Positions 25,524 through 47,700 of a DNA stretch of 64,000 nucleotides are shown here, one piece after another. Below the pieces are notes generated by a model. That model saw only the letters and a program-made list of their open reading frames with translations. It made no database searches and was not told where the DNA came from. Each line of letters starts with the position of its first letter. Positions within the stretch are counted from its first letter, which is position 1. A program made the position numbers and the translations under genes. This stretch comes from a virus. Where the stretch lies: positions 12,771-76,770 of IMG/VR virus record IMGVR_UViG_3300008107_005910. One strand, written 5' to 3'.

Positions 25524-25579
25524 AATAGATGCATCCTTTGATTTATTTATTGGTGATAACTGCGTACATAAATATTTCC

Positions 25580-27100: not shown

Positions 27101-27101
27101 T

Positions 27102-31151: not shown

Positions 31152-32409
31152 CTTCTAACCATTTGTAAAATTCTTTTCCTCGCTGGATATCAATTAACTC
31201 TTGTGGATTGACTGCATCCTTGGGTCTAGTAACGTCACTTCTAAATCCTGATAATACATAGTCCCAAGCTTCAGCTGGGAAAATATCTATCTCTTTCCAA
31301 TCCTCTACTGGCGCATTTTTATACAAGTCCCAATACTCGTTTGATCTCTTTGAATATTTGTAGTGAGCAATAATAAAATTCATAACACCATCAAACTCAT
31401 CATTGGTTTGTTGATTATATTCTTGTTCAGTTAAGTTGCCATCAATGTAACTTGTTATTCTTTTTAATGCAGAAGTTGTCAAATATAATCCAGTTGATTC
31501 AATTGGTTCAATAAATGCTGAGCATAATCCAATTGCTACAACATTATCTTTCATGTGTACTTTGTTGCGCCCAGTACGCATACGAACAGTACCAATTTTG
31601 TTTCTATCAACTATTAAATGAAACTTATGTTGTATGTACTCAATAAACTCGTCCATGACATCAAACTTGTCACAATGCACGTAACCAACTGCCAGCTGAT
31701 CGCCTAGTGGAATATTCCAAATCCATCCGCTATTTGCGGCTTTGAATATCGAATATGGTACACATTGATTCTGTTTGTCAGTATAAGGATGTCTAAAAAC
31801 CAACGCTTTATTATTAGGAACTTTGTCTGATATCTCAACAAAGTTGTCGTCCCAATTAGTCAACAGCTTTTTAAATCCTGTTGAGTCAATAACTAAATCA
31901 AAGCCTGTGACATCATCAACTGTTGCATCTTTACGTATGATGGTTAAATTTTTAAATTGTCCAACAAGTGTGTCCATGTACTTTAATATATCAGATGCTC
32001 TAAAGTGTACGGAGATATCTTTATATTCATAAATGTTATCTGGAACTTTATTAATGGACATCATTCTATCAAGGCTACTGCTATTGTATTTGTCAGTTTG
32101 TCCAATACCAAATGGGAAAGTAAACTTTTCACCTTCTTGATTAAAACCGTCAAATACAATACCTAACTTCAAAGTACCGTTGCAATGCTTAATGATATCT
32201 GCATGACTTATTCCTAAGTCATTTAAAAAATGCGACACATCAGGTATCAGTGCTTCGCCAACTCCAATTGGACTATTCTCTTCTGGATATGTCCAAACGA
32301 TCTCCTTATCTGGATATTGTTTGGCTAGATAAAAAGCGGTTAGATATCCTGAAGTTCCTGCACCAACGATTGCAATTCTTCTAATGTTTCTATTTTCCTG
32401 TAGTGCCAT
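31132..32409 (-). CDS. flavin-dependent tryptophan-halogenase family protein
   Basis: GAGTSG, IGVGEA, TLKLGI (catalytic Lys), GWIWNIP, FIEPIESTG. Confidence 0.88.
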   Translation of the reverse strand: MALQENRNIRRIAIVGAGTSGYLTAFYLAKQYPDKEIVWTYPEENSPIGVGEALIPDVSHFLNDLGISHADIIKHCNGTLKLGIVFDGFNQEGEKFTFPFGIGQTDKYNSSSLDRMMSINKVPDNIYEYKDISVHFRASDILKYMDTLVGQFKNLTIIRKDATVDDVTGFDLVIDSTGFKKLLTNWDDNFVEISDKVPNNKALVFRHPYTDKQNQCVPYSIFKAANSGWIWNIPLGDQLAVGYVHCDKFDVMDEFIEYIQHKFHLIVDRNKIGTVRMRTGRNKVHMKDNVVAIGLCSAFIEPIESTGLYLTTSALKRITSYIDGNLTEQEYNQQTNDEFDGVMNFIIAHYKYSKRSNEYWDLYKNAPVEDWKEIDIFPAEAWDYVLSGFRSDVTRPKDAVNPQELIDIQRGKEFYKWLEDERNLT

Positions 32410-33056
32410 TTTTTGTTATTCTCTTCCATTTGCTTTACACCCTTACCTTTTACTGTCTTACAAAAAACAATATTAGGAAGTGCATCAGTTTTGTTTACAA
32501 ATACTTTTTCTAACTCGTCTCTATTGTGTCCGTCAACTATTTGCGTCCACCAACCATAATGTCTACACAAGTTAATAACAGGTTCAATTTTTAATATAGT
32601 ATCTATATTACCAGTTACTTGTGAATTATTGTAATCAACAGTTACAAATACATTTTTAATTTGATTGTGTCCAATGAATTGTAATGCTTCTAATGTATTT
32701 CCCATTTGCAAACAAGCATCACTTAGATTTACCCAAACTTGTTTACTAGTGGACATTGCAATACCAATTGCTACTCCAAGAGCATTGCCCATTGTTTCTT
32801 CGCCGTAGTCCACAAACGAAACTTCATCGTGTTTAACTCCAACACTGAGTTGCTCAATATTTGTTACATACTGTAAGTCTTGCCAAACAAGATAGTATGC
32901 TTGTGCTCCAAAGGGTTTACCAATTACAATGTAATCGTCAATACTAACAATACCTTTTGAAAATAGTATGTCAACATAGTCAAGCATACTTAATGCACTT
33001 GCTATGTGGCTTAGTTTATTTTCAAATGAGTATTCTAGTAAACGTTTTCGATTCAT
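32340..33056 (-). CDS. transketolase N-terminal ThDP-binding half
   Basis: SHIASALS, MGNALGVAIG, SDACLQMGN...DYNN, VDGHN, TVKGKGV, WHY. Confidence 0.85.
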   Translation of the reverse strand: MNRKRLLEYSFENKLSHIASALSMLDYVDILFSKGIVSIDDYIVIGKPFGAQAYYLVWQDLQYVTNIEQLSVGVKHDEVSFVDYGEETMGNALGVAIGIAMSTSKQVWVNLSDACLQMGNTLEALQFIGHNQIKNVFVTVDYNNSQVTGNIDTILKIEPVINLCRHYGWWTQIVDGHNRDELEKVFVNKTDALPNIVFCKTVKGKGVKQMEENNKKWHYRKIETLEELQSLVQELQDI

Positions 33057-34081
33057 TTAAACGGCTTCCTTGGCAAATAAAAATCACCGCCGCAGTAATC
33101 CCAACGACATTTAGTTCCAGAATTAAACAGTACATTCATTTTGGTAACAGCCAATCTATCATTCACTAAATTAGTATATGGTGTTTCAGGTATACATTCT
33201 CTTAGATAATTGGTCATGTGTATGCCGCAGTTAAAAACATTACCATCACCATTAATGGTAATGCTACGTGTTCCAGCGGCACAGTGCCAACCTCTATTAT
33301 CAACACCTTTTTTAAATAAATCATTAGTGTTGTACATTACACCGTCAATACAATAAAGTTGTTCAGTCTTATTGTATTTGTTGTAAAATTCAATATGACG
33401 TTTTGATGTTTCTTCATTATATGCGTAATGACAAAACCCATAAATCATTTCACTATTAATAATCTTATCATAGGTTAAACACTCTTTAACGTAATCATAA
33501 AATTCGTCAATATGCTCTTCTGGAATATTTTCTAACATAACATCAAAGTTATGTATGGCAACGCCTAACTCTTTAATTCTATTAAAATTTTGTTTGAATG
33601 AGGACAGTTTGTTAGTTCGATCTTTTAATTCTAAATAGTGTAGAGATACATTGAACTGTTCACATAGTGGTAGCAACTCTTCTAACAGCTCTGTTTTAAA
33701 TGTTAGATTAGTTTGCATTTCATTATATGCTGTTATACCTGTCTCAGAACTCTTTTTCTTCACATATTTTAATATATCAATTACTTTGGGATGTCTAGTT
33801 GCCTCACCGCCGTGATAGTAAAACATCACACTATTAAATTTGTTCTTTTGAAAAAATTCAAAAAGTTTGTCAATACTAGTAATAATGTCTTCGTACTTGT
33901 AATGTCGTCCTGAATGCCAATGGCAATAATTACAATGCAAGTCGCAAGCTTCTGTAATTCTAAATGTTACATTGTACTCAGCATTGTACCCACCATGGTC
34001 ATTTACCTGTACTATTTTATATGATTCTATTGGCTTTATCTCGCCAACTTTCATTTCTTCTTTAGTTGTTATTTTTGTCAT
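33053..34081 (-). CDS. radical SAM protein with Twitch/SPASM-like C-terminus
   Basis: CDLHCNYC, HGGEAT; CAAG...CG...CRWDYC. Confidence 0.88.
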   Translation of the reverse strand: MTKITTKEEMKVGEIKPIESYKIVQVNDHGGYNAEYNVTFRITEACDLHCNYCHWHSGRHYKYEDIITSIDKLFEFFQKNKFNSVMFYYHGGEATRHPKVIDILKYVKKKSSETGITAYNEMQTNLTFKTELLEELLPLCEQFNVSLHYLELKDRTNKLSSFKQNFNRIKELGVAIHNFDVMLENIPEEHIDEFYDYVKECLTYDKIINSEMIYGFCHYAYNEETSKRHIEFYNKYNKTEQLYCIDGVMYNTNDLFKKGVDNRGWHCAAGTRSITINGDGNVFNCGIHMTNYLRECIPETPYTNLVNDRLAVTKMNVLFNSGTKCRWDYCGGDFYLPRKPFK

Positions 34082-34668
34082 TATATGACCATCCTAGTAC
34101 CAGTTACATCTAACTCAATGTAGCTTAAACCTTTTATGGTTGGTACATTTATAATTTGTTTTGCGGCAATTAATGGATCTACTGCTTGATCAATATGACT
34201 TAGGTTACCTGTAAGTTTTGTTCTAACAAACCCAGGATGAACCAATTGCCAATTAATGTGTTCAAATTGTTTTGACAGTTCCATCACTCCCATGTTTAAT
34301 GCCGCCTTGCTCATTCGATAATATATAGAAGCAGTATCAGCTGAGATTACATTGCCTTTAGTCAATGCACCAAGTATACTTGTTAATACAACAATCTTGT
34401 CGTTAACATGCGGAGCAATATACTGTAAAAACTCAATGCTTCGCGTTGCATTAACTTCCATTGTTTCATCTGCTTCAGTTGATATACCAATACAATAATA
34501 TACTTTTGAAAACTTGTTTTGGAATACGGGCCAACTACTCTTATCTTTAATATCTAACTGTATAAATTTAGAATCAGTCCTTCTACTCGTACCAAGTGCA
34601 TCAGGCAATAATTCATGTATTGCTTTGCCAATGCCGCTGTCAACACCAATAACAATATCCTTAATCAT
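34081..34668 (-). CDS. short-chain dehydrogenase/reductase
   Basis: GVDSGIG, YRMSKAALN, HPGFVRT. Confidence 0.88.
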   Translation of the reverse strand: MIKDIVIGVDSGIGKAIHELLPDALGTSRRTDSKFIQLDIKDKSSWPVFQNKFSKVYYCIGISTEADETMEVNATRSIEFLQYIAPHVNDKIVVLTSILGALTKGNVISADTASIYYRMSKAALNMGVMELSKQFEHINWQLVHPGFVRTKLTGNLSHIDQAVDPLIAAKQIINVPTIKGLSYIELDVTGTRMVI

Positions 34669-35299
34669 TTTTCTTCTGCAATTTCATAAGTACATCCATA
34701 CCTCGATAGCTTACATCAAAAGCCAATGACAAACGAGGGACTTCTGTTTTATTTGGACGAACACCATGTTTGAGCCAACTAGGGAATAGTATCAATTCTC
34801 CTGTTCGTGTTGATATCTCTTGGCAATTTTGTGATAACTTATGTTCATCGTCTTGTGGCAAAGTAGATGCTAATGCTTCGTTAGGATCTTGAAAGTATAT
34901 GTTTCCTTGCTCATCGGATTCTTTATACACATAAAAACAACCTGATATAAAATAAGGGCTATGGTTGTGCATAATTGCATGACCACCATTATTATATTTG
35001 TTTGCCCAAGAGTAGTGTATGCCAGGACTTTGTACCAATCCCAATTCTTTCCAATATACTTCAATGTGTTGATTAATAAAATCCCAAACGTCAGATAATA
35101 TTTTTTCTTTGTGCAAGAACAACATTCCATTGGTACTTGTGCTTATTTCCTTACCTGTGCCTGAAAGCTCTGCGTAGGTAGCCGTATCTTTATCAAACTG
35201 ATGAAAGAATGGTTCAAGCCTGCGCATAAAATCCACATGATCATAATCAGGCATTGTTGCTCTATATATTCGTGTAGGAAATAAATTCACTATGGACAT
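34661..35299 (-). CDS. 2OG-Fe(II) oxygenase (TIGR02466-like)
   Basis: WAN, HNH, SGCFYV, LILFPSWLKHGV, RLSLAF. Confidence 0.85.
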   Translation of the reverse strand: MSIVNLFPTRIYRATMPDYDHVDFMRRLEPFFHQFDKDTATYAELSGTGKEISTSTNGMLFLHKEKILSDVWDFINQHIEVYWKELGLVQSPGIHYSWANKYNNGGHAIMHNHSPYFISGCFYVYKESDEQGNIYFQDPNEALASTLPQDDEHKLSQNCQEISTRTGELILFPSWLKHGVRPNKTEVPRLSLAFDVSYRGMDVLMKLQKKND

Positions 35300-35305
35300 G
35301 ATACA

Positions 35306-36262
35306 TTATAACACATTTGGGTTATAAAACACAAGAAATTGTGGAACAAACCAAACTTGCTTGGCAAACTTATGGAACATCCAGAATCCCTCAAATGTGC
35401 CTTCTGGATAATCTGATGGAACAAACAGTATCCTAGATTTCAATGTTTGTAGAGTTGGCCTTAATTTATTAAAAGTTCCTCGAATATGTATTTCATCTAG
35501 TTTGGAGATTTTACCACTATAGAACTTATCCTTAGAATCTGTTTCAGCTTCGTTGAACTCTGCACCCTTGTACACATGATACAAATCGTCTTGTTTGCCT
35601 AACCATATGCCAACCTCAACCAATTGGTCAAACAACTCTCTAACCTGTTCTACTGTAGTAAACTTATAGTCGTCATTATAAACAAAATTTTGATGGTAAT
35701 CTAATAAGTTATTAGCATTATCAAACTCCATATCAGACTGCGCTTTTAACTTATCAAACTCGCCATCACGTTGCTTTTCAACCCAATCATTCCAAATAAA
35801 GAACATAAAGCCGTCAGACTTATGTCCGTTATAAATGCTCCATTTCATTCTATGAAATATAGTTTTACAAAAACAATTTAATTGATAGGTAAACTCTACT
35901 ACATCAATGTATCCATTGCCATCCTTGTGTAGCATTGTTTCCATAACAATACCATCATAAAAAGGAATATTCCATTCCTGTAAATGTTTAAAACTTTCTC
36001 TGTCGTAAGGATTATCAGTTACAGGCGGATTGCCAAAGTCTTGACGTTTGCCTTCTTCAGCTAATGTTCTGTCAATTACTTTGTTTACTTCTGCTATCTT
36101 CTTAGGGTTAGCAACATATACTCTAGGTCTTATTTGATACCCTGGATACTTTGCAGATAGTGTTTCAGACCTATTGCTTCTTCTTTCAACTAAGAAATCA
36201 ATAATGCTTCCAAACTCTCCGCCTCTTAGATATTCATCACTATCTACATCATATACTTTCAT
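35306..36262 (-). CDS. hypothetical protein
   Basis: 318-aa ORF; no recognised motif. Confidence 0.7.
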   Translation of the reverse strand: MKVYDVDSDEYLRGGEFGSIIDFLVERRSNRSETLSAKYPGYQIRPRVYVANPKKIAEVNKVIDRTLAEEGKRQDFGNPPVTDNPYDRESFKHLQEWNIPFYDGIVMETMLHKDGNGYIDVVEFTYQLNCFCKTIFHRMKWSIYNGHKSDGFMFFIWNDWVEKQRDGEFDKLKAQSDMEFDNANNLLDYHQNFVYNDDYKFTTVEQVRELFDQLVEVGIWLGKQDDLYHVYKGAEFNEAETDSKDKFYSGKISKLDEIHIRGTFNKLRPTLQTLKSRILFVPSDYPEGTFEGFWMFHKFAKQVWFVPQFLVFYNPNVL

Positions 36263-36938
36263 TTAATATCTCCTGTAAGGACAAAGGCTGATAGCCTAAC
36301 TCCTTAAATACATTTCCTGGTAGCCTTGGATCATTGTGGCAGTTAATAAAACTTGTATTTAGACTACTAAAAATATTGTTAAATTGATCTACCATTTCTG
36401 CTGTAATACTACTGCGTTTAAGGACTACAGATTCATAGCGTGTAATCAAATTATTGTAGTTGTTATGTACAGTTGGACAATTAAATTTTTGCCCCATAAA
36501 TTCAAACTTGCCATTTTTGATTATGTCCTCAAACTTTAAAGTCGTTACATAATCTAATTTAGACAACGTAATACTATCAATAACTGATGAAGTTGTTACT
36601 GGTGTTACATAATCTAATCCAACTGGTAACTCGTCATCTTCAAACAAATCATCAATCCCAGTCAAATAAGACACTGTTGGGTGTCTAATTATATTCAATA
36701 TTTGAACATCATAATCTTTACGTAGTTGATCTAAGAACACGCGACTAAATGTTCCACCAATTGCTTGACATTGTTCTAAAGTATCATAGTCTTGTTTATA
36801 CTCAACTTCCGTTAACATTCCTAAGTCAACTCTAGGCAAAGAAAAGTTATTATAGCAATGCAAGTAAGACGCAACTGGACTAATTTCTTTTGCAAAGAAC
36901 TTGTGTTTGATCCCAGGAAGACCACTCACTACAATCAC
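36249..36938 (-). CDS. degenerate P-loop/sulfotransferase-fold-like protein (paralogue of 42026-43027)
   Basis: IVVSGLPG, GTFSRVF, NIIRHP, LKFEDI, ELGYQP. Confidence 0.55.
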   Translation of the reverse strand: MIVVSGLPGIKHKFFAKEISPVASYLHCYNNFSLPRVDLGMLTEVEYKQDYDTLEQCQAIGGTFSRVFLDQLRKDYDVQILNIIRHPTVSYLTGIDDLFEDDELPVGLDYVTPVTTSSVIDSITLSKLDYVTTLKFEDIIKNGKFEFMGQKFNCPTVHNNYNNLITRYESVVLKRSSITAEMVDQFNNIFSSLNTSFINCHNDPRLPGNVFKELGYQPLSLQEILNESI

Positions 36939-37750
36939 TCTAAACTCCTTTGTACAAATTTCATTAGCTCACCATAATACTCATCGTCTTTCATTTCTCT
37001 ACCAGTAATTTTAAAACTACGAACTCCCATCTCTTTTAGTCTACGCATTGCTGGTGGCTCTATATCCATTTCTTCATACTTGCTGTCCTTATCTGGATTA
37101 AACTTAGGCAACCAACATTCTTCTACTTCACGACTGTATGGACGTCTTGCTGTGTTCTCATCAGCAATGGCTTTGAAGTGTTCATCAAAATATTTACAGC
37201 CCCAGACGCAGGTGTCGTTCAACATTACTTCCCATTTGGTTTTATCAAGCTCATTGGATCTAGGATCAAAGATATGTTCAAAACGTGGGACTATCCAGTC
37301 GTACTTAGTTTCTAGTTCCTTGTACCAGGAAATGTCTGAATCCTGTAATGGAATGTTTAGTCTGCCCATTCCAGTTATACTGTATATTAAATCATACTTG
37401 GGAAAATTATCACGCACATATTGACGTAGACTGTCATTAACAATAATAAGGGCATTGCCTTCCCTGTGAAACTTTTCTAGTAATTCATTACCTAATGGAT
37501 CAGTTAAATCAATATTATGATTACTAAAAGTTAGAGCTATGCTTACACCTTTACTGTAGTAATAATTGATAAGAGCATCACTATAATAAACATCTCTATT
37601 GATTCTTCCGCCGTTCCAATCACATTTGTTAATACCATCGTAGACAACTAACTCGTTAGTATCAACTAAGTTGTGACTTAGGAACTTAACAAGTGGAATT
37701 GATTTACTGAATGCGCCTGCTAATAGATATCTCATTACATTAAAAAGCAT
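36935..37750 (-). CDS. peptidase U32-like (Fe-S) protein
   Basis: WNGGR, LNDTCVWGC...H...C, FKITGRE. Confidence 0.7.
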   Translation of the reverse strand: MLFNVMRYLLAGAFSKSIPLVKFLSHNLVDTNELVVYDGINKCDWNGGRINRDVYYSDALINYYYSKGVSIALTFSNHNIDLTDPLGNELLEKFHREGNALIIVNDSLRQYVRDNFPKYDLIYSITGMGRLNIPLQDSDISWYKELETKYDWIVPRFEHIFDPRSNELDKTKWEVMLNDTCVWGCKYFDEHFKAIADENTARRPYSREVEECWLPKFNPDKDSKYEEMDIEPPAMRRLKEMGVRSFKITGREMKDDEYYGELMKFVQRSLE

Positions 37751-38484
37751 TTGTCTTTAGGACAAATACCATCCGTTTTAATTCTGTAGCAACAATTATA
37801 TAGTTGCAAGTTTGGTCCATACAAAAAGTATTTGTCTTTGTATAAACAAGTTTTGCCTTTAGTTGTGAAGTTAGGATTAGCCCACAACTCTGAGCGTGAC
37901 TCACCTAAACGTTTCTCGTCTTCAAATTGTATTATGTTTTTAAGTTTACTATCGTTTTTGAGTTGATTGAACTTGTCTAATATTGTATTGCTCACTCCAT
38001 CACCAAAATCTGTAATGGGAGTCAAATACACTTCTGAAGTTTGTGCAAGCTCTTTAACTTTGAAGTAATAGATTAAAGCATTCTCTTGGCTGTACATGAT
38101 ATCGTATCTACGTACATTATGCTGTGACTGCATTACTTCGTACAGTTCTTCAATGGACATTTCACTAGGATGTATACTTGCCTGCATTGTGAATGGCTGT
38201 TGAATTCCTTTAATTACTTTAACACTATACGGACTTAGATTAGTTTGTATTACGAATGGAACGTTCAACTCGTTAAAGCATTGTATAATATATTCAATGT
38301 CAGGATGCACAAACGGCTCTCCACCAAATACAAACACTTCCACGTTAGGATATGTTTCCCCTAACATCTTAACAAAGTTACGTATAGTTTCTCTATCTAA
38401 GTTGGGATAGATGCTTTTGTCCAAGTTGGTACAATAAAAACAACCGTAGTTGCATTTCATTGTAATTTCCCATTCAACTTGCAT
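37735..38484 (-). CDS. radical SAM protein
   Basis: CNYGCFYC, FGGEPF, QTN; C-terminal C...CC...CPKDKC. Confidence 0.88.
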   Translation of the reverse strand: MQVEWEITMKCNYGCFYCTNLDKSIYPNLDRETIRNFVKMLGETYPNVEVFVFGGEPFVHPDIEYIIQCFNELNVPFVIQTNLSPYSVKVIKGIQQPFTMQASIHPSEMSIEELYEVMQSQHNVRRYDIMYSQENALIYYFKVKELAQTSEVYLTPITDFGDGVSNTILDKFNQLKNDSKLKNIIQFEDEKRLGESRSELWANPNFTTKGKTCLYKDKYFLYGPNLQLYNCCYRIKTDGICPKDKCFLM

Positions 38485-39376
38485 TTTTCACCTTTAGTTG
38501 TTTTAACAATCCATCACAATTACATGCCTTGTGTGGGCATATCATTGGTACAGTTTTTGTTATATTCTTAAAGTAGTCTGGGTTATCTATCAAACTTGTA
38601 CGTTTGCCATCCAAACAAAACTTAATAACTCCTCCGTATACATCTACTTCGTAATTATTGTTGTAGCAACTCCAACCTTGAAAATTAGTTAAACCTTGAT
38701 TGAAGACTTGATAATCATTAAACACATCATCGTCATATACTAAATCTTTTTCAAAATCTTCTAAGAATTTGAAGTACTCCCAAAAGTCTTCTCTGTAATG
38801 AAACAATGTGTGTACATCCTTTCCGTATATAAAATGTGGGTGTATTTTCAATCCTTCAATGCCTGCACAAATCTCAAACATCTCTTTGATAAGCGGCCAC
38901 AATTTCTTGTCGTGATGTAACATTATATTGACTTTACATTTATATCCACGACTCAACATTAATTTCATATTAGCAATGAATCTATCCCTGTTGGTACAAT
39001 CAGCAGGATGATAACTGAACAAAAATGCTATCTTGTCATATTGTGGATGACTAGTAAAATCTCTCTCAGCATTGGTTACTACGTATACCCATTTGAACTT
39101 GTCAATTGCATGTAGTCTGTCCATTATGTAATAGTAATGAGGACTTAGTGTTGGCTCTCCGCCCAACAATCCTAAATTGAAATTCAAACTGCTACGACTT
39201 AAAGAATCAATGACAGCATCAACAACTTCACGCTTGCCCATTTGTCCCCATTTTTCTGCATACTCATTACGAGCGTAACAGTAAGAACAGTTTAATTGGC
39301 ATATGGTTAAGACATCCCAATGCACATTAATGTGATCAGGATCTTGATCTATGTGATGTTGCTTTGAATACTTCAC
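38474..39376 (-). CDS. radical SAM protein
   Basis: CQLNCSYC, LGGEPT, SYH; C-terminal C...C...CPHKACNC. Confidence 0.88.
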   Translation of the reverse strand: MKYSKQHHIDQDPDHINVHWDVLTICQLNCSYCYARNEYAEKWGQMGKREVVDAVIDSLSRSSLNFNLGLLGGEPTLSPHYYYIMDRLHAIDKFKWVYVVTNAERDFTSHPQYDKIAFLFSYHPADCTNRDRFIANMKLMLSRGYKCKVNIMLHHDKKLWPLIKEMFEICAGIEGLKIHPHFIYGKDVHTLFHYREDFWEYFKFLEDFEKDLVYDDDVFNDYQVFNQGLTNFQGWSCYNNNYEVDVYGGVIKFCLDGKRTSLIDNPDYFKNITKTVPMICPHKACNCDGLLKQLKVKNAS

Positions 39377-40032
39377 TGATACTCCTTTAAGAAATCCATA
39401 GATACAATAACATCTAATTCTTTCTTTGTTCCTTCAAACGAAATATTGTCGCCACCATCTATTGTTTGATAAAATAATACTTTGTTTAATGTAAGAACTT
39501 GTTTTGAATGTTTGGCTGCAAACATTACTAAATTAATGTCGTTGTGTACATTATTATCCATTGGGAATGGAAAATGTTCAATTACTTTACGTTTAAAAAT
39601 AAACTGTGATAATTGCAAGTGCTCTAAATTAAGATTAGATACAAATTCCTCTGGTGTAAGTAGCGCATCATTAAACAAGCGCATGAATGTTAGCTTGTCG
39701 TCTGTATTATATGTTGGACAGTAGTTACCAGCAATGATATCTGCAACTAAGGGGACTTCAAAGTTCTTTACTAGATAGTCATCATCTTCTAAAAAGTATA
39801 CATACTCGCCTGAAGCTTTTGATAAAAGGAATTGATAGACTTTAGATAGATTATCAAACTTATTAAAATAATAAGTTATGTTAGGATGGTAGTCTTCTGG
39901 AATCACATCATCACTATCATTATTGACTATGATCTCTACGTTGTTATTGTCAAGCAATAGACGTGCAGATTTCAAACAGCGTTTGAATAACTCTGGACGT
40001 TTATGTGTAGGTATCAATATGCTTAGTTTCAT
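39373..40032 (-). CDS. glycosyltransferase family 2
   Basis: LSILIPTHKRP, GEYVYFLEDDD. Confidence 0.88.
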   Translation of the reverse strand: MKLSILIPTHKRPELFKRCLKSARLLLDNNNVEIIVNNDSDDVIPEDYHPNITYYFNKFDNLSKVYQFLLSKASGEYVYFLEDDDYLVKNFEVPLVADIIAGNYCPTYNTDDKLTFMRLFNDALLTPEEFVSNLNLEHLQLSQFIFKRKVIEHFPFPMDNNVHNDINLVMFAAKHSKQVLTLNKVLFYQTIDGGDNISFEGTKKELDVIVSMDFLKEYQ

Positions 40033-41096
40033 TTTTTTAAATAAAAGTTTACTTCTTTAATTTTTTCACCTGGTTCTGGATAAAATTCTTCATCCATTTC
40101 CTTTTTAATTCCATCACAAATATAAAAATGTTTACAAGTTACACAACTTAAATCTTTACGATAAAATCTTTCTCTATGACTGGCGGCTTCTTTATACGCC
40201 ATTTTAACTTTCTCTTCCTCAGTATATGGTCTGCTTACATCCATTTCTTGATTGTAGGTTTCGCGATTCCAATCTCTAACATCATATATGTGTTGAAATA
40301 TATTATACTGATATTGTTCATAACCCTTCATATAGCAGTACGGAGTATATCGAACAATTATTTCAATTTCCTTATCTAATTTATCAATACATTTTTTAAT
40401 ACCGTCAGTTAAATCAGATAGACTTAAATTGCTAAAGTCTTCTTCATTGTTCTCAAGCCAATAATTTAATGTAATAAAATTAACAGCTACTGGCTTAATT
40501 GAATTAATTAGGTCTGCATAAACATTTTCAAGTTGATGATAATTTCTAGAATAAACTGTACAATTGATTCTAACAATCATTCCCAATTCTTGTGCGTTTT
40601 TTATTCCTTGTAATATTTTTTCATATGATCCTGGACGATTAGTAATTGCCTCATGTGTTTCTTTGGTAGGCCCATGTAAGCTGAACAATATCTCTTTTAA
40701 TCCATGTTCCTTACTCTTACGTAAGTGATTCATATTGGCAAAAGTTCCGCCATGGCTTAGACAACTAATACTGGTAAATCTTTCATTACAGTAATCTAAA
40801 ATTTTAAACCAATCAGGACTCATGGAACTTTCGCCGCCGCTTAAATCAACTTCAGTAATGCCGTAATCATACAAATAGTCAATCCTCTTTTTGACCACTT
40901 CCCATGGAGTTTTTTGATCTAGTATATCCCTATAATAACAAAATTCACAATCATAATTACATAACGGACCAGTGTCTAATCTAGACCTATTACATCTAGT
41001 AGATTTAAAATCATAATTTAATCCAGACACACTCAACTGTTGTAAGTCGTGTTGTACAGGAGATTGTTTTGTAAAAGATATTTTACTTTCTTTCAT
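40029..41096 (-). CDS. radical SAM protein with C-terminal Cys cluster
   Basis: CNYDCEFC, SGGE, FSLHG; CVTCKHFYICDG. Confidence 0.88.
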   Translation of the reverse strand: MKESKISFTKQSPVQHDLQQLSVSGLNYDFKSTRCNRSRLDTGPLCNYDCEFCYYRDILDQKTPWEVVKKRIDYLYDYGITEVDLSGGESSMSPDWFKILDYCNERFTSISCLSHGGTFANMNHLRKSKEHGLKEILFSLHGPTKETHEAITNRPGSYEKILQGIKNAQELGMIVRINCTVYSRNYHQLENVYADLINSIKPVAVNFITLNYWLENNEEDFSNLSLSDLTDGIKKCIDKLDKEIEIIVRYTPYCYMKGYEQYQYNIFQHIYDVRDWNRETYNQEMDVSRPYTEEEKVKMAYKEAASHRERFYRKDLSCVTCKHFYICDGIKKEMDEEFYPEPGEKIKEVNFYLKK

Positions 41097-42022
41097 GTTA
41101 TGAACTCTTTAACATATTTGATAAAATCATCGTTATCTGTCAATAATAATGAATTAATGTCTTTTGAAATATCTTCTCGCCTTCTTTCAACGCCACCGCA
41201 GACATAATCAATATCATATATCACTTCCTTACCATAAACTGCACACTCAACAATAAACCTTGGGCTACAATCTCCTTTATCTGGTGTAGCAGTATATATG
41301 TAGGTATCAAAGTTTTCAAATATATTTTTGATTGGCGCTTGAGCAACAATCACATTGTCGCTTGCTATCGTTTTGTAGATGTGAGGTTCATTAGTAAGTA
41401 CTAGATATTTGTCAAATTGATATTTAGATAAAACATTTTTCAAATCATTAATTGATAATGCTCTACAGTTAGTAGTTAGGTAGAGAAGTGCTGTATTAGT
41501 TTTTATTAGTTGTGGATGATGATATTTTGACCAAAGTATCTTTTTGACATAGTCTATTACTTTGATATTAATGTTATCATATCTCTCAGGATATAACTTA
41601 AAATCCTGCATGACATGAGCATGTTTGATTGTTTTGTGATTATGGAAGCTACTGAAGTCGTCTTCACTACACCTTAGTAAAAACATATTTTCAGTATAGA
41701 AGACACAACTTAAGAATCGCCAACTGCCATCAACAACACAGACATTGTTTGCCATAACAATTTTAGGCACAGCACACTCAAACGTGTCTTCTTGTATTTT
41801 TACAAATTCGTCTTCTGTGAAACTATATTTGTCTTTGACCGCAGTTAAAAATAAATCTTTGCTAGTACGGTCAGTTAACAAAATGCAGGAATTAATTCCA
41901 TTGATAGAACTTATGTAATAATAGTCGATGAGTTCATACAAGTGGCCACTGACACCATGCTGGCATTCAAAAGAAGTGGTGAAGACGAGATCGTACTTCT
42001 TTAGATCGACTATTTTGGACAT
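41093..42022 (-). CDS. hypothetical protein, possibly GT-B glycosyltransferase-like
   Basis: HGVSGH N-terminus; FDTYIY...SPRFIVECAVYGKEVI resembles the GT-B 'EA...G.PVI' motif. Confidence 0.45.
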   Translation of the reverse strand: MSKIVDLKKYDLVFTTSFECQHGVSGHLYELIDYYYISSINGINSCILLTDRTSKDLFLTAVKDKYSFTEDEFVKIQEDTFECAVPKIVMANNVCVVDGSWRFLSCVFYTENMFLLRCSEDDFSSFHNHKTIKHAHVMQDFKLYPERYDNINIKVIDYVKKILWSKYHHPQLIKTNTALLYLTTNCRALSINDLKNVLSKYQFDKYLVLTNEPHIYKTIASDNVIVAQAPIKNIFENFDTYIYTATPDKGDCSPRFIVECAVYGKEVIYDIDYVCGGVERRREDISKDINSLLLTDNDDFIKYVKEFIT

Positions 42023-42025
42023 CTG

Positions 42026-43027
42026 TCACTCCTTTGGAGCGAAGATTTGTTCAAGAGTGATTGGGGTGTAACCTAAAGAAACAAGCAAAGAATCTGAAAG
42101 ATGTGGGAGTGGACGATTGTATTCTTTTTCTAATTCTTCTCTAAATCTAGAATATGCTGAACATATTCCTTCAACTGCGTCAACATCCACGTAGTCTAAA
42201 TTTAAATTTTCTTTTTCCCACACAGATATTATTCCGTTGTAATCTGCATATCCTTCAGGCATCTGAATTTTGTGATTTTCAATCTCAACGTAACCACTCT
42301 TTAATATATCTTCAAATTTAATAGATGTTACGTCAGTGAGTTGGTTTAGTGTATATGCGTTAACTGCTGACCTAATTGCTCTTATTCGATTTCTCTCTGG
42401 AGACATTGTAGGATTTTTTTCATAATACGAAGGTTTATTTTCGTTGAAGTATGTAACTACGGAAGGGTGTCTTATGATATTGTACACCTTTACATTTTGC
42501 TCACCTATGTCTCTTTTTATTAAATCAATAAATGCTTTTGAAAAAGAACCATTTACAACATGTACATTAGATGGTCTATTTCTATAGTAATTTAAAAAGT
42601 CTTGATAACCGTGTGCAAAACTATGATACTGTATTGGAGTATCCCATTCATAGGCGCTAGTATCTATACCAAGATCATATTCTATATCAACAAAAATAGT
42701 TTCAAAACTTGAAGGATTATTTGTCATGTCTAAAAATAATCTATCATACAAGTCGTCAGCTTCTGTAAAAATAGACAACCCGTCCTCGCCGCTAAGAAGT
42801 GTTGTTAGTTCTCGATTTTTTGTATCATAAACAACTTCATTTTGTGCATTGAATATTTGAAAAGGATGAGCTATATATGACTTACCATCGTCAGATTCTG
42901 CAAATTCTGCATCAAACGTAACAGTGTGTCCATTTTTCAAATTAAAGACTGGATTCATAGCGCAAAAAACTTTTTTTGCGATATAATTTTTATTAATTGA
43001 TTCTAGACCACTAATAATGACTAACAT
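42026..43027 (-). CDS. degenerate P-loop/sulfotransferase-fold-like protein (paralogue of 36249-36938)
   Basis: IISGLES, GSFSKAF, NIIRHP, IKFEDI, SLGYTP. Confidence 0.55.
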   Translation of the reverse strand: MLVIISGLESINKNYIAKKVFCAMNPVFNLKNGHTVTFDAEFAESDDGKSYIAHPFQIFNAQNEVVYDTKNRELTTLLSGEDGLSIFTEADDLYDRLFLDMTNNPSSFETIFVDIEYDLGIDTSAYEWDTPIQYHSFAHGYQDFLNYYRNRPSNVHVVNGSFSKAFIDLIKRDIGEQNVKVYNIIRHPSVVTYFNENKPSYYEKNPTMSPERNRIRAIRSAVNAYTLNQLTDVTSIKFEDILKSGYVEIENHKIQMPEGYADYNGIISVWEKENLNLDYVDVDAVEGICSAYSRFREELEKEYNRPLPHLSDSLLVSLGYTPITLEQIFAPKE

Positions 43028-43031
43028 CCAA

Positions 43032-43439
43032 TTATTTCCTTAGATAAGACTCAACAATCAAATTAACTGCGTCCTCATCATTTTGATTTGGCAGTCTTTT
43101 TAATTTGTTTATAATATCAAAATACTGTTCTTTTTTATCTTCTAAAATTTTAATTTCGTCTTTTAAAGTGATGTATTTTTCTAAATCTGCAATCAATGAC
43201 TCGTCATTAAGTTCAATGATTTTAATATAACATTCTTCTTTATTATCATCTGTGATTGCAATGCCTTTACTTAAAAATTTATTGTTTAACATCATTAAAG
43301 ACACGAAGTCAATTAATTTAAAAGTTAAAAGGTCATCACCAAAATAACCACGGGCCTTAGTTTTAACTGCCCATGCCGCTTTTCCTGCATAAGTTGATCT
43401 GTCAATACCTTCTATTTCTTTTTTATTACTGTCATCCAT
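43032..43439 (-). CDS. hypothetical helical protein (start MDDSNKK)
   Basis: ATG directly after the TAA of the S74 frame. Confidence 0.7.
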   Translation of the reverse strand: MDDSNKKEIEGIDRSTYAGKAAWAVKTKARGYFGDDLLTFKLIDFVSLMMLNNKFLSKGIAITDDNKEECYIKIIELNDESLIADLEKYITLKDEIKILEDKKEQYFDIINKLKRLPNQNDEDAVNLIVESYLRK

Positions 43440-43440
43440 C

Positions 43441-43873
43441 TTAAGCCTCAATCATTTTTACTGGTAATTTTGAATAGTTTACTTGATAATAACCGTTTGA
43501 ATCTTTACTTAGTGCATCTTCATATTTGGTGCCTAAAAGTTCTTGAGCCATAACACCAATATAAGTCTTAGCAGTGTTCCAAACGTAAGAGAAGGAATAA
43601 ACATTTAAGCCTTCAACAATGTCAACAAGTTTGATAGATGTCTTTAATCTAATATCACTAATTTAAATCGGCAGCTTCAATCAAACCAGTAAATCTAGCT
43701 TGAACTACAGGTGCGGCGGTGCTTCCTCGTCTAACACGTTCTAAATTGACTGCGGTTTCAATTTCTCTAAATTTGGTAGTTGTAACTTGTACTCCGGCTG
43801 CAACTGCTGGCAAAAAATAAATTACAGCATCTGATCCAGGATTGGTACCAAATGTATTAATGACTTTTGGCAT
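43441..43873 (-). pseudogene. interrupted gene: 71-aa N-terminal segment plus out-of-frame peptidase S74 (intramolecular chaperone autoprocessing) domain
   Basis: 43873-43658 has a GAGGAG SD; 43659-43441 reads SDIRLKTSIKLVDIVEGLNVYSFSYVWNTAKTYIGVMAQELLGTKYEDALVKDSNGYYQVNYSKLPVKMIEA* with no start codon of its own; junction GAT TTA AAT T AGT GAT. Confidence 0.8.
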
Positions 43874-43886
43874 TACGTTGCTCCTC

Positions 43887-44276
43887 TTATATCTCTTTGT
43901 TCAAGAACTCTAAGTTCTGTTTAGCACTATTTTGAGCAACAAACTTTTCATAATCGTCTAAATCAGAAGAGGCAGTTATAAAATCGAGAGTCTCTTCGTC
44001 TGGTGCTTTAGTAAAATTCATGTTTCCGTTTTCTACGGCTTGTTTTTCCAAAATGCTCAAAACTAATTCTTCCAATGAAAAACCCAAAATGCCTGTAACA
44101 ATTTGGATTTTTTCGCTTACATCCATATTTTTTGTTTCAGCAACATGTTTGGCTGCTTTGATAATGTTTATTGACATACCAAAGCCTTCCATGAAGACGT
44201 ATCCAACATCTTGATTCTCTTTCTCGATTTCCTTAATCAAATCATAAATTTGACCCATTTTTTCTTCAATCGCCAT
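43887..44276 (-). CDS. hypothetical acidic accessory protein
   Basis: ORF in the rSAM operon. Confidence 0.7.
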   Translation of the reverse strand: MAIEEKMGQIYDLIKEIEKENQDVGYVFMEGFGMSINIIKAAKHVAETKNMDVSEKIQIVTGILGFSLEELVLSILEKQAVENGNMNFTKAPDEETLDFITASSDLDDYEKFVAQNSAKQNLEFLNKEI

Positions 44277-45156
44277 TTTTTAATTCCTTGTCTTTAAAAT
44301 CGTGAAAACGCGGCGCATTTTCGTAATTACCATATGTTGTGACGTTGCCTTCATCAGTGAAATACGTTTTTAACTGCTTTCGCTCCCCGCATCCGTTGCA
44401 CATATCGCAAAATAGTTCACAAATAGGGGTTTTTATGCTGTTATTTATCCAATCATCTCTGAGCTGATTTTTAATCCTATCTAGGGTTTTCACATCGTTT
44501 TCGTCAATTTGTTCCCAAACTACAGATGTTATCAATCTAACTGGCTTGAAGGTTTTAATGATTCTTGTCATATCTTCATAAAGATGATTGATATTAAGTT
44601 TGTGTATGGTATATCTTATTCTAAATTTCACCCTATTTTGATTTAATTTAGATAAAACTTTAATTATGGTTGTAGTACTATCCATACCATTGTGGAAAAT
44701 CCTATCGCCATTTCCCACACCGTCAAAGCTCACGTCTATGCTCAACTGTCCGCTCTTATAAAAGAAATTATTTTTAACCCTGTTAATAAATCTTTGACTT
44801 AAAAATCTTAAACCATTTGTGGTTAAATTAAAATGTACATTCTTTTTCTTAAGATATGCGTATGACATAGCGTAACAGACATTGTCCCATTCTAAAGTGG
44901 CCTCTCCACCAAATAGTACTATTAATGTTTGTCTGTCTGGATCCAATTCTCTTTCCAAGATAGCATCAATGCTTTTTTCAATATCTTCCTTAGTCATGAT
45001 CTGTGGAGGACGACCTGGCAGATCTTCGTAACAATAGGTGCAGGCTAAATTACACTTATTTGTAAAATATAAAACATTAACTGCTGAACCTTCAAAAGTA
45101 GGTTTCTCTGTTTTATCACCTACATAAAATTCATAAGGAAAGGCCGTATCTGTCAT
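44266..45156 (-). CDS. radical SAM protein (anSME/peptide-maturase-like) with short Cys tail
   Basis: CNLACTYC, FGGEAT, TTNG, VSFDG; CELFCDMCNGC. Confidence 0.9.
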   Translation of the reverse strand: MTDTAFPYEFYVGDKTEKPTFEGSAVNVLYFTNKCNLACTYCYEDLPGRPPQIMTKEDIEKSIDAILERELDPDRQTLIVLFGGEATLEWDNVCYAMSYAYLKKKNVHFNLTTNGLRFLSQRFINRVKNNFFYKSGQLSIDVSFDGVGNGDRIFHNGMDSTTTIIKVLSKLNQNRVKFRIRYTIHKLNINHLYEDMTRIIKTFKPVRLITSVVWEQIDENDVKTLDRIKNQLRDDWINNSIKTPICELFCDMCNGCGERKQLKTYFTDEGNVTTYGNYENAPRFHDFKDKELKNGD

Positions 45157-45422
45157 TGTCTAGCCTTTGCTTCTTTTACAATGTGAGCAACATTATCTAA
45201 GAATTTTACGTAATCAAATTTATATTCAAACAAGTGGCCTGCTTCATTCCTGTAATCAACATAATGATTGTCTACTTTTGCCTTGCCTTTTTTTGCTTCT
45301 TCAATTTGTTGTTGTAAATTATCAATAGTTAAAACAGTATCGCTCTTATGCTCAACTGGCTGCATTTCTACTTTAACAGGAATGGCAGCTATGCTTTTAT
45401 AAGTTTTTTTTAATTCTTGCAT
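45153..45422 (-). CDS. hypothetical accessory protein
   Basis: Overlap-coupled between two rSAM genes. Confidence 0.65.
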   Translation of the reverse strand: MQELKKTYKSIAAIPVKVEMQPVEHKSDTVLTIDNLQQQIEEAKKGKAKVDNHYVDYRNEAGHLFEYKFDYVKFLDNVAHIVKEAKARQ

Positions 45423-46537
45423 TTTTGCACATCCTTTGAATCAGAAGCACCTTCACTGAGCCAATGAACAATGAGGTCTTGAAATACTGGCTCATCTCGA
45501 CATTCATCTACTACACGCATTGCTTGTTCGTAAGTGATGTGGAAAATTTCACAAATACTATCTAAAGGTTTGTTGTCGTTCATTATTTGACTGTAAGTAC
45601 AACCTGCATTACATACTTGTTTTAGATCACAAGGTTGGCACTTGTCAAAAGTTTTTGGATTAAACTTGTCTTGATAATATTTGAAATTATAATTGTCGTC
45701 CATGAGCATGATTTTCTTACTAGCAAATCTAGCACATGGATAAAACTCGCCGCTACTCATCAAAACACCACCGTGTGTTCCTGCAAAACAACCAAATGGT
45801 CTTTTACCTTTTACTAGTCCGTATATAGAATCTAATATTGCCAGTCTAAGGAAACCAACACTACATGATACACCTTGTTTTAACTTTTCAATATAACAGT
45901 CAGTTAGTCTAACTAATTCAGTTTTGAAAAATCTAATATCATCAGCAGTCCAAACATCGTCTCTAACAATACTAAAGTCTGGATGTGGGATACCCCAATC
46001 TAAAAGAAACTCAAAATTTTCTTTCATGTCTTTGGTATTGCCTGGCCAAATCATAACCTTACATCCATTTGCTAGATCTTTTATTAGATGTTTTTTGTGC
46101 TCGTATAAGTCTAAGATTCCATTAAACAACTCTCCAGTTTCTGGATTAGTGTTTTCAAGTAAGGGAAGTAATGGTCTGCTTTCGTTTGAACTCATTCCAT
46201 CAAAGCTCCAACTTATTCCTATTCCAGATTCTTTGATAAATTTAAACTTATCATCATCTATCATAGTTAAATTAGAGATAATGTTTATTCCTTTACATCT
46301 AGGATCTTTGGTTAATATTGGAGTTGCATGTTTGATCAATTCCCAATTTAATAAAGGCTCTCCTCCAAAAAAACTAACAAAGAAATCCTTTTGTCCAGAA
46401 CGATCCATTAATTCAAATAGTTTTGGTAAAGATTCATCAAATGTTTCTTTGGTCATCCAAGTAGGACGATTTGCCACATAACAATAAGGACATCCCAAAT
46501 TACATTTTTCAGTAACGCTAATTTCTAATACAAACAT
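45410..46537 (-). CDS. radical SAM/SPASM peptide-maturase-like protein
   Basis: CNLGCPYC, FFGGEPLL, SFDG; SPASM CFAG...PC...CQPC....VCNAGC...C. Confidence 0.92.
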   Translation of the reverse strand: MFVLEISVTEKCNLGCPYCYVANRPTWMTKETFDESLPKLFELMDRSGQKDFFVSFFGGEPLLNWELIKHATPILTKDPRCKGINIISNLTMIDDDKFKFIKESGIGISWSFDGMSSNESRPLLPLLENTNPETGELFNGILDLYEHKKHLIKDLANGCKVMIWPGNTKDMKENFEFLLDWGIPHPDFSIVRDDVWTADDIRFFKTELVRLTDCYIEKLKQGVSCSVGFLRLAILDSIYGLVKGKRPFGCFAGTHGGVLMSSGEFYPCARFASKKIMLMDDNYNFKYYQDKFNPKTFDKCQPCDLKQVCNAGCTYSQIMNDNKPLDSICEIFHITYEQAMRVVDECRDEPVFQDLIVHWLSEGASDSKDVQKCKN

Positions 46538-46546
46538 ATCGTCTCC

Positions 46547-47653
46547 TTATGCTGTACATTGTTCAGCGTGAATCTTAATAACAGGCTTTTTGTATGTGTT
46601 CATTGCAGTTCTTAGAGCATGATGAACTACTTCGTTTGTCTTAAAAACTTTACATACTTGCCAATTAGAAGTATGATCACTCCACTTTTCTAAATAAGTT
46701 TCTTTCTCTGATTTTTCAAACGTGGCTGCATTACACTTCATGCAAAATTGGCTATCGCAACTCATACAATCCAAAGGTTGATTTTTTAGTGCATCTTTAT
46801 ACATTGCACTTCGTTCTTGTATAAGTTCATCTATGTTAGGTGTTGTATTAATATTACCCATAACATGTGCATGTGATTCTTTATACATACAACCATGGCA
46901 AGGACTAATATCTCCGTTTAGGTCAACACTAACATATTTGATTCCAGCTGAACATAGCGGTCTACTCTGTTGGAACCAAGCAAAAACTTCTGGTTTTAGT
47001 TTATTGGTGTAAATGTATTTTGCAATTTTTGCCAATCCCTGTTTGAGCACTTCAAGTTTTGGATAAAATTCTTCTTCAGTTAATTGGCTGTAAAGGTCTG
47101 GAGTGGGGAAATATGAACCTGTAAGTTCATATACATCTAGGAATGCTTCATATATCAAGTGAAAGTTTTCAGCAGTTAAAACAGATTTCATTCTAACATT
47201 CAATCCATTTTCTCTAGCAGCCAAGAAATTAGCCTTTACTAGTTCAGAGCTTACGTTTCCTGATTTGTCTACTCTAGTTCTATCATTGACGGCCTTACCA
47301 TCATAAGATATTTGGAACTGTAGTCTTTCACCTAATTCTTTTGTTAGAGCAACTAGTTCTTTCATATACTTTCTTAAATATACACCATTGGTATAAAAGA
47401 AGAAACTATAATTAGAATCATGTTTATATTTTTCTATGACGCCTTTACAAAATTCCCAATTAATAAAAGGTTCACCGCCCCAAAAATAAATTTCTCTTTT
47501 TGGGTCTGAGAGTTTACTCATAAACTCTTCAATGTTGTCTAGGGTTACGGAAGTGTTTTCTTCATATGCTGTTGATAGGCCGCATTCATAGCCTTCAGAA
47601 CAGTAAGTACAAGCCAGATTGCACGTACTGGTTACGTTGATGTCAATTATCAT
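46547..47653 (-). CDS. radical SAM/SPASM peptide-maturase-like protein
   Basis: CNLACTYC, FWGGEPF, YTNG, ISYDG; SPASM CSAG...PCHGC...CMSC...FCMKC...C. Confidence 0.92.
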   Translation of the reverse strand: MIIDINVTSTCNLACTYCSEGYECGLSTAYEENTSVTLDNIEEFMSKLSDPKREIYFWGGEPFINWEFCKGVIEKYKHDSNYSFFFYTNGVYLRKYMKELVALTKELGERLQFQISYDGKAVNDRTRVDKSGNVSSELVKANFLAARENGLNVRMKSVLTAENFHLIYEAFLDVYELTGSYFPTPDLYSQLTEEEFYPKLEVLKQGLAKIAKYIYTNKLKPEVFAWFQQSRPLCSAGIKYVSVDLNGDISPCHGCMYKESHAHVMGNINTTPNIDELIQERSAMYKDALKNQPLDCMSCDSQFCMKCNAATFEKSEKETYLEKWSDHTSNWQVCKVFKTNEVVHHALRTAMNTYKKPVIKIHAEQCTA

Positions 47654-47700
47654 ATTTTTCCTTAGTATTTTTTAAACGCCCACCGCTGGGCTAATGTTAT

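Follow-up and report, generated by a model that had tools for sequence, protein, structure and literature searches.

A viral contig in IMG/VR (record IMGVR_UViG_3300008107_005910) encodes three radical S-adenosylmethionine (radical SAM) enzymes, here called rSAM1, rSAM2 and rSAM3, followed on the same strand by the remains of a gene for a phage fibre-type protein. In related phages this protein carries a C-terminal tract of the seven-residue repeat CTCNCNY, and in most of its family the tract runs directly into a Peptidase_S74 chaperone domain. The stretch analyzed, referred to as the window, comprises 64,000 nucleotides (positions 12,771 to 76,770 of the record), and positions below are those of the window. 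Comparison of related phages indicated that rSAM1–3 and the heptad protein are very probably functionally linked. Judged from sequence, we lean towards the statement, taken as a whole, that the three enzymes act on a fibre-type virion protein, modifying its heptad tract in the manner of peptides that are synthesized ribosomally and modified post-translationally (RiPPs), with thioether formation as the favored chemistry. Thioether formation on the tract, argued by analogy with characterized enzymes, is by itself plausible if tentative. The genes concerned are, in order of transcription:

46547–47653, minus strand: rSAM1, found by Pfam, with a SPASM domain and eight C-terminal Cys; best solved relative 5WGG
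45410–46537, minus strand: rSAM2, with the canonical seven-Cys SPASM motif; best NCBIfam match PapB, over the full length and far below the cut-off
45153–45422, minus strand: s89, a conserved protein of no family, between rSAM2 and rSAM3
44266–45156, minus strand: rSAM3, with a C-terminal CX3CX2CX2C cluster motif (Pfam, motif and PDB searches)
43887–44276, minus strand: s129, a conserved protein of no family, directly upstream of the putative substrate gene
43658–43873, minus strand: 5′ remnant (71 aa) of the gene for the Cys-heptad fibre-type protein, ending at a TAG made by a deletion
43441–43659, minus strand: 3′ remnant, the Peptidase_S74 (PF13884) chaperone domain (Pfam E 2.5e-7, 31.3 bits against a cut-off of 22)
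43032–43439, minus strand: s139, always just after the heptad gene; all-helical model, homologue CP220 gp015

The heptad protein gene of the window was interrupted by a contig-specific deletion of 284 nt between positions 43659 and 43660, with loss of the whole heptad tract. The 3′ remnant, a 72-codon open frame starting from exactly SDIRLK, was displaced by one base from the frame of the 5′ remnant. In the alignment, the window copy spanned the first ∼100 columns with its 71 residues, had nothing of the middle, and matched again at S74. An exact 30-mer from the S74 part retrieved two metagenome contigs of the same phage from independent assemblies (L153 and L154); exact 30-mers from the 5′ remnant had no match in the metagenome or viral collections. 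L153 matched the window at 99.3 and 98.5% identity on the two sides of the junction and contained 284 extra bases exactly at 43659/43660, with no other indel across 13.9 kb. Its intact allele (L153:7581–8297, minus strand) encodes 238 aa, of which residues 1–71 are identical to the 5′ remnant of the window, followed by 95 residues ending in CVCNCNY CTCNCNY CTCDCNY S CTCQCNY T and then, in frame, by SDIRLK. The S74 sequence of L154 ran directly into repeat-coding sequence. The deletion may be a true variant or an error of assembly. Because the contig is without the heptad tract, the probable target was invisible to a previous annotation made from the letters of the window (hereafter the sequence-only reading), which had reported an S74 gene: the domain itself stands, above the Pfam cut-off, whereas in this contig the gene consists of a 71-aa open reading frame (ORF) and an out-of-frame domain.

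Two other accounts of the split gene were rejected. One was a +1 frameshift programmed at AAT-TAG, by which the 71-aa ORF would be read through into S74; against it, the relatives were all free of a shift, and an in-frame, intact allele exists elsewhere in the same phage. The other, an old pseudogene marking long-standing loss of the substrate gene, was discarded on the same grounds. A leave-one-out count of private changes in rSAM1–3 gave no clear sign of relaxed constraint, a result that depends on tree position. No second substrate was found in the 76.8-kb contig, where no other real ORF was Cys-dense and only one S74 motif occurred.

At the same position, relatives encode a protein of 208–316 aa with a C-terminal CTCNCNY CTCNCNY CTCNCNY x CTCNCNY, followed by SDxRLK and S74 or by a stop; in some of them S74 is lost or reduced to a 12-aa stub. 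The heptad family comprised 669 clusters in a large protein collection. Among the best 120 of these, Cys was conserved in 100%, Asn4 in 91% (otherwise mainly Asp), Asn6 in 96% and Tyr in 98%; exactly four heptads were present in 105, with direct continuation into SDxRLK in 119. Position 2 of the heptad accepts T, V, L, I, and S. Synonymous sites vary freely within the repeats, indicating selection on the protein. Both the S74 part and the N-terminal part matched virion and tail-fibre PHROGs, and a profile of the heptad family had no match among PDB sequences. The putative precursor is a protein of 205–530 aa with a conserved N-terminus, a C-terminal Cys core and a predicted self-removing S74 end.

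The family also varied in its architecture. The close relatives L012 (14184–14666) and L009 (13306–13785) have a heptad gene that stops right after the last CNCNY(S), with a separate 160-aa ORF containing hydrophobic, membrane-like stretches in place of S74. Tandem arrays of three to four paralogous heptad genes with variable middles were found in L033 (G007:C1:19644–21698) and L036 (G009:C1:60913–62460); most copies in these arrays end in the 12-aa S74 stub SDEQLKSQVEYM, and one copy in L036 has a full S74. Distant versions (L061:6230–6886 in G014; L039, L040, and L042) have extra N-terminal Cys-rich motifs, e.g., WTCTCNAHDG..WACACN, and up to ∼9–20 heptads. A fusion of rSAM1 to its putative substrate in L061 was considered and rejected, as a stop codon lies between the two genes.

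The window carries one copy of a cassette that is conserved among large T4-like phages. The pairing of the enzymes with the repeat was seen from both sides. A search of IMG/VR with a back-translated (CTCNCNY)2 pattern yielded 29 contigs, 17 of them not close relatives. All 21 repeat contigs tested carried radical SAM genes (2–16 each), and 20 of them had two or three SPASM-type radical SAM genes 1–5 kb directly upstream of the repeat on the same strand; in the 21st (G002), the contig is truncated immediately ahead of the repeat. Further radical SAM genes lie downstream of the repeat gene, and one contig (G010) had 16 in 207 kb. From the enzyme side, a profile built from rSAM2 orthologues identified 76 loci. 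A heptad array was nearby in 45 of the 45 loci with at least 36% identity and usable flanks, and the three rSAM2 loci without an array were all cut by contig ends. Synteny persisted down to 29–43% identity, the range over which rSAM1, rSAM2, and rSAM3 were each orthologous across phages, with a rearranged order in distant clades. Conservation of gene order with the S74 gene, on which the sequence-only reading had made its proposal depend, was found in both searches.

All seven radical SAM genes named in that reading were recovered, with scores of 38–74 bits against the Pfam Radical_SAM cut-off of 29.5 (PF04055) and one N-terminal CX3CX2C in each. SPASM assignment was based on the C-terminal seven-Cys motif (C...C, CX2CX5CX3C, C) for two auxiliary 4Fe-4S clusters. 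The first two genes were correctly placed among the SPASM enzymes: rSAM1 scored 24.5 bits against a Pfam SPASM cut-off of 21.5, and rSAM2 had the exact CX2CX5CX3C with flanking Cys, all invariant in 10 orthologues. The C-terminal Cys of rSAM3 formed only CX3CX2CX2C, not the full SPASM motif. The top NCBIfam matches of rSAM1–3 were PapB, SCIFF, QhpD, and DynA, which are thioether-forming or protein-crosslinking SPASM maturases, and the best solved relatives were PDB entries 5WGG/5WHY, which we take to be CteB. The three proteins are not members of the PapB family (NF047865; 122, 91, and 74 bits against a curated cut-off of 340) or of the SCIFF maturases (TIGR03974; at best 61.6 bits against 425), and QhpD scores (TIGR03906) were ∼58–60 bits against a cut-off of 453. 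The same PDB entries are cited as CteB in PMC13692751. The CrpC family model (TIGR04463) was absent from the best 25 of the 55–60 NCBIfam families matched per protein. The cluster motif stands already at residues 11–12 in rSAM1 and rSAM2, and rSAM1–3 are without an N-terminal RiPP recognition element (RRE). None of the seven enzymes reached the NCBIfam cut-off for QueE, MoaA, NrdG, or any other cofactor or nucleotide family, an outcome that would have counted against the sequence-only reading.

In the proposed mechanism, the three SPASM-type enzymes would modify the heptad tract post-translationally by installing thioether bonds of the ranthionine or sactionine type from Cys to Asn/Asp, Thr, or Tyr. 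Each heptad would offer three Cys to the three enzymes, and Asn/Asp and Thr are acceptor types in known ranthionine systems. The S74 domain would then trimerise the protein and cleave at the Ser of SDxRLK, leaving a mature C-terminus ...CNCNY(x), so that the tip of a virion appendage would consist of the modified tract; this end is supported by relatives in which the ORF stops exactly there. The accessory genes of the operon, described below, would build and attach a sugar or other decoration. A fuller version, which we advance more cautiously still, is that the phage staples and decorates its own structural protein, with thioethers, possibly interchain, in a (CTCNCNY)n triple-helix tip exposed by S74, and with an accessory pathway of ∼15 kb adding sugar, sulfate, or halogen.

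The nearest precedent is archaeal: in Methanococcus voltae, the Cys-repeat protein CrpA receives ranthionine links from CrpC (PMC13692751, 2026). There too, a SPASM radical SAM enzyme is encoded beside a Cys-rich repeat protein with a conserved N-terminus and C-terminal Cys repeats. CrpC/CrpA differs in being a cellular system with one enzyme, which has a fused RRE, and 17-residue repeats with C-X-X-Q/D, whereas the phage cassette has three RRE-less enzymes, 7-residue CTCNCNY repeats, a virion-type protein and an S74 end predicted to cleave itself. PapB and CteB (ranthipeptide/SCIFF) resemble the phage enzymes in their SPASM motifs for auxiliary clusters and in targets that are Cys-rich and repeated, with Asp, Asn, or Thr as acceptors; they act on a peptide of ∼40 aa, while the phage side has a protein of at least 200 aa, no N-terminal RRE and scores far below the cut-offs. 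In quinohemoprotein amine dehydrogenase maturation (QhpD/QhpC), a radical SAM/SPASM enzyme cross-links Cys to Asp/Glu in a protein subunit. QhpD is similar in that TIGR03906 was among the top matches of rSAM1–3, although below its cut-off, and its context and substrate are unrelated. On the substrate side, the S74 chaperones of endosialidase tailspikes and phage fibres likewise start at SDxRLK and occupy the extreme C-terminus of a fibre-type protein, but S74 fibres are not otherwise known to have a Cys heptad tract before S74 or radical SAM companions. In the searchable literature, no paper was found that contains ‘CNCNY’ or describes a phage radical SAM, thioether, or RiPP cassette of this kind.

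The small conserved proteins of the core region matched little. s89 and s129 had no Pfam match even at E 5, and s139 was rejected as an RRE or recognizable chaperone, its predicted structure being a helical bundle with no PDB match. Complex prediction of the heptad protein with s139 gave a score of 0.00, which is no verdict either way.

Among GenBank phages, rSAM2 orthologues were restricted to 15 Campylobacter phage records of Firehammervirus (34–35% identity, full length). These phages (CP220, CPt10, IBB_35) resemble the window phage in having orthologues of rSAM1–3, s139, a protein like UDP-glucose/GDP-mannose dehydrogenase (UGDH), two transketolase-like halves and a heptad protein; they differ in that the genes are dispersed rather than in an operon and that the repeat lies in the middle of a 534-aa protein without S74. 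CP220 has 11 radical SAM enzymes, with gp136, gp023, and gp099 as orthologues of rSAM1, rSAM2, and rSAM3, respectively. The s139 orthologue, gp015, is beside the baseplate hub, and the UGDH-like orthologue, gp019, adjoins the rSAM2 orthologue. The transketolase-like halves are gp072 and gp141, the latter directly upstream of the heptad protein gene, and a block of radical SAM and nucleotide-sugar transferase genes lies away from it. The Campylobacter heptad protein was found by searching for two adjacent heptads. In CP220 it is gp140 (CPT_0180, L151:4933–6537, 534 aa), with seven C[LT]C[DN]CNY heptads mid-protein, and it occurs in the same 15 records as the rSAM2 orthologue. After the heptads, gp140 has a 200-aa C-terminal part with CTCNAN, CSCQGD, CRCNAN, CSCNVD, CVCDTN, and CVCDIN. 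Some records name it ‘N-acetylneuraminate pyruvate lyase’, a name for which no support was found here.

Gene 3-9 of IBB_35 (1605 nt, 60.3 kDa) is the homologue of CP220 gp140, and it was among 38 virion proteins detected by tandem mass spectrometry (PMC3322345 Table S2). This is the only experimental datum and favors a virion role; we consider it probable that the heptad protein is in the virion. The sequence-only reading had left the product as either a virion appendage or a secreted peptide, and the former is the one favored by the virion data on the Campylobacter phage homologue. Timms et al. (2010) described the radical SAM count of CP220 and CPt10 (11–12) as ‘highly unusual’, noted a 21-bp intragenic repeat separately without linking it to these enzymes, and interpreted the enzymes as boosting host metabolism (PMC2853527).

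Several observations weigh against modification of the heptad tract by rSAM1–3. All NCBIfam scores are far under the curated cut-offs, placing the three enzymes outside every characterized maturase family, and no RRE (PqqD-like) was found in rSAM1–3 or s139, nor in s89 and s129, which were searched with Pfam only. The parts are dispersed across the genome in the Campylobacter phages, and coverage of gene 3-9 in the virion mass spectrometry was just 2.6% (PMC3322345 Table S2). The four further radical SAM enzymes of the operon (rSAM4–7) are tied to the same substrate by co-location only, a tie that fails in the contig G016. Finally, a ladder of Asn, stacked Tyr and a core lined with Cys would also be compatible with a triple beta-helix that carries no modification and binds metal or forms disulfides.

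The last point leads to an alternative that is unlikely but carries the most weight, namely that the tract is an unmodified triple beta-helix tip whose Cys core binds metal or an Fe-S cluster or forms disulfides, or that rSAM1–3 perform other chemistry, e.g., epimerization, methylation, or hydroxylation. Trimeric beta-structures are the typical ends of S74-tailed fibres, and beta-solenoids often have Asn ladders and aromatic stacks. The tolerance of position 2 (T, V, L, I, S) is like that of a packing residue; the position of rSAM1–3 in no characterized family is also compatible with other chemistry. A purely structural role, however, leaves unexplained the upstream SPASM enzymes in 20 of 21 contigs and the array at 45 of 45 orthologue loci, and the nearest characterized relatives of rSAM1–3 all make Cys thioethers.

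The core genes are part of a larger operon. The window belongs to a viral contig of 76.8 kb with a CheckV completeness of 22%, and complete relatives are 202–214 kb with terminal repeats. Phage genes around the region encode ribonucleotide reductase, DNA ligase, virion proteins, and endolysin; a T4-type uvsX was present in one relative, and megablast of the region against GenBank phages gave no match. The sequence-only reading had described one co-oriented, overlap-coupled run at 33053–47653. Co-orientation and overlaps were borne out, most overlaps being 1–16 nt, and the limits were too narrow: the minus-strand operon has ∼27 genes over ∼21 kb (27782–48441), and its gene order is kept in relatives. 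The start had been placed at a ‘TAAATA element’ near 47698, which is the stop-codon context GCT AAA TAA of the UGDH-like gene; the run continues upstream through that gene to a sigma-70-like promoter, the likely operon start as judged by consensus match. A T4-type late promoter was also rejected, TATAAATA occurring twice in the window against eight expected. A small GC-rich hairpin (GCCCACCGCTGGGC, 47678–47691) occupies part of the 47 nt that separate the UGDH-like gene from rSAM1; a terminator scan flagged it on the plus strand only. The remaining features of the operon are:

48459–48487, minus strand: sigma-70-like promoter TTGACA-17-TATTAT (11 of 12 consensus positions, consensus match only), in the divergent gap before the first gene
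47701–48441, minus strand: short UGDH-like protein, N-terminal and central domains only (Pfam); conserved directly upstream of rSAM1
42026–43027, minus strand: u333, paralogue of 36249–36938; sulfotransferase-like by language-model features only (a lead)
41093–42022, minus strand: u309, GT-B-fold glycosyltransferase-like; every version of the larger cassette has one to three copies
40029–41096, minus strand: rSAM4; nearest solved relative (weak) the cytosylglucuronate decarboxylase BlsE, which acts on a nucleotide sugar
39373–40032, minus strand: GT2 glycosyltransferase, above the Pfam cut-off
38474–39376, minus strand: rSAM5 (Pfam)
37735–38484, minus strand: rSAM6 (Pfam)
36935–37750, minus strand: conserved 271-aa protein with a sub-threshold U32 link only
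36249–36938, minus strand: u229, paralogue of u333 (27% identity, E 1e-20)
35306–36262, minus strand: u318, present in some relatives, no family named
34661–35299, minus strand: 2-oxoglutarate-Fe(II) oxygenase (2OG-FeII_Oxy_5), above the Pfam cut-off
34081–34668, minus strand: short-chain dehydrogenase/reductase (SDR)-like fragment, below the cut-off
33053–34081, minus strand: rSAM7 (Pfam)
32340–33056, minus strand: transketolase-N-like protein binding thiamine diphosphate (Pfam)
31132–32409, minus strand: flavin-dependent (Trp-type) halogenase (Pfam)
30675–31151, minus strand: transketolase pyrimidine-binding-like protein (weak Pfam match), 40% identical to CP220 gp141
27782–29899, minus strand: two NAD-dependent epimerase/dehydratases and a PIG-L deacetylase (Pfam), the sugar-nucleotide end of the operon

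The two transketolase-like halves (30675–33056, minus strand) are split by the full-length halogenase gene. Converging on the operon end from the opposite strand (25529–27785, plus) are an eighth radical SAM gene (523 aa, with a weak match to a B12-binding domain) and a gene for a Sulfotransfer_2 protein, which may belong to the same tailoring set.

The enzymes that had been named among these genes fared unequally. The GT2 and the 2-oxoglutarate-Fe oxygenase both scored above their Pfam cut-offs. The GT-B-like protein was also confirmed: the AlphaFold2 model of u309 had a pLDDT of 92, and all 11 Foldseek matches at E ≤ 1e-3 were GT-B glycosyltransferases, including SPY, NGT/HMW1C, and OGT, and hence protein glycosyltransferases among them, with probabilities of 0.97–1.0 but TM values of only 0.3–0.45 and no sequence family. 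The U32-type Fe-S protein was not supported: the Peptidase U32 match spanned just 32 residues and, at 16.8 bits, fell short of the cut-off (22.4). In the atlas, 16% of a single neighboring cluster is labelled U32, which is no more than a lead. The SDR assignment also failed, with 24 bits against 26.6–27 and a match to profile positions 96–192 only, the C-terminal half, so that the N-terminal NAD(P)-binding part was unmatched. Solved relatives of rSAM5–7 were weak or none.

The extent of this block varied between phages. The minimal module, in G016, consists of rSAM1–3, two small ORFs, a 381-aa heptad protein and one more ORF, with four ORFs upstream; no recognizable sugar gene was found in the module and no other radical SAM gene on the contig. 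The window clade and several distant clades add s139, one to three GT-B genes, rSAM4, GT2, rSAM5, rSAM6, the 271-aa protein, rSAM7, the 2-oxoglutarate oxygenase and a transketolase-like gene. Because the minimal module keeps only rSAM1–3 and the heptad protein, these are regarded as the core and the remainder as a lineage-specific tailoring block. The sequence-only reading had proposed a multi-step radical SAM pathway acting on a self-trimerising protein. Comparative genomics strongly supports this for rSAM1–3. The support does not extend to a single pathway of all seven enzymes with the U32, 2-oxoglutarate and SDR proteins: the minimal module lacks the rest, and the nearest solved relative of rSAM4 acts on a nucleotide sugar. 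From its co-location, the accessory block probably glycosylates the heptad protein and perhaps sulfates or halogenates it.

The same block suggests that the operon could be mainly a sugar or glycan pathway, for host-surface remodeling or a small molecule, with the radical SAM enzymes acting on sugar nucleotides and the fibre gene as a bystander. The UGDH-like protein, the two epimerase/dehydratases, PIG-L, GT2, GT-B, the transketolase-like halves and a sulfotransferase are consistent with this, as are the affinity of rSAM4 to BlsE and the location of a similar radical SAM/nucleotide-sugar transferase block of CP220 away from the heptad gene. Such a pathway is nevertheless distinctly unlikely as an account of the whole operon, since the G016 module keeps rSAM1–3 and the heptad gene with no recognizable sugar gene and the pairing of rSAM1–3 with the repeat is near-universal. 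It may hold for the accessory half only, in which form it is compatible with modification of the heptad tract by rSAM1–3.

The conserved N-terminus, Cys-rich core, and removable end, together with the three to four tandem paralogues of the precursor gene in L033 and in L036, also resemble RiPP clusters, from which it could be proposed that the matured product is a released or intracellular RiPP-like effector, with the N-terminus as leader and S74 as follower protease. This is improbable: a homologue was present in purified virions, the products are proteins of ∼130–530 aa, the S74 and N-terminal parts match virion and tail-fibre PHROGs, and the s139 homologue is among the CP220 baseplate genes. 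The proposal of Timms et al. (2010), made for CP220 and CPt10, that the radical SAM enzymes boost host metabolism at low oxygen with no dedicated phage substrate, has hardly any probability here, given that the paper offers no specific evidence for it (PMC2853527), that 0 of 7 enzymes reach cofactor or nucleotide family cut-offs and that the strictly conserved neighborhood with the heptad gene points to a dedicated substrate.

If the fuller version, stapling and decoration of the phage's own structural protein, is true, a virion component would for the first time be seen to undergo RiPP-type maturation. The swarms of 7–16 radical SAM genes in aquatic T4-like phages and in Campylobacter phages, seen since 2010 in the latter and since 2017 in marine T4-like genomes, would then have an explanation. 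Radical SAM thioether chemistry has so far been associated with small peptide natural products and, very recently, with one archaeal protein; with a phage cassette directed at a fibre-type protein, that chemistry would reach virus particles, which would suggest receptor-binding or stabilizing tips that are covalently locked or chemically decorated. Cultured Campylobacter phages have all the core parts and a heptad protein detected in the virion, which makes this biology open to direct mass spectrometry.

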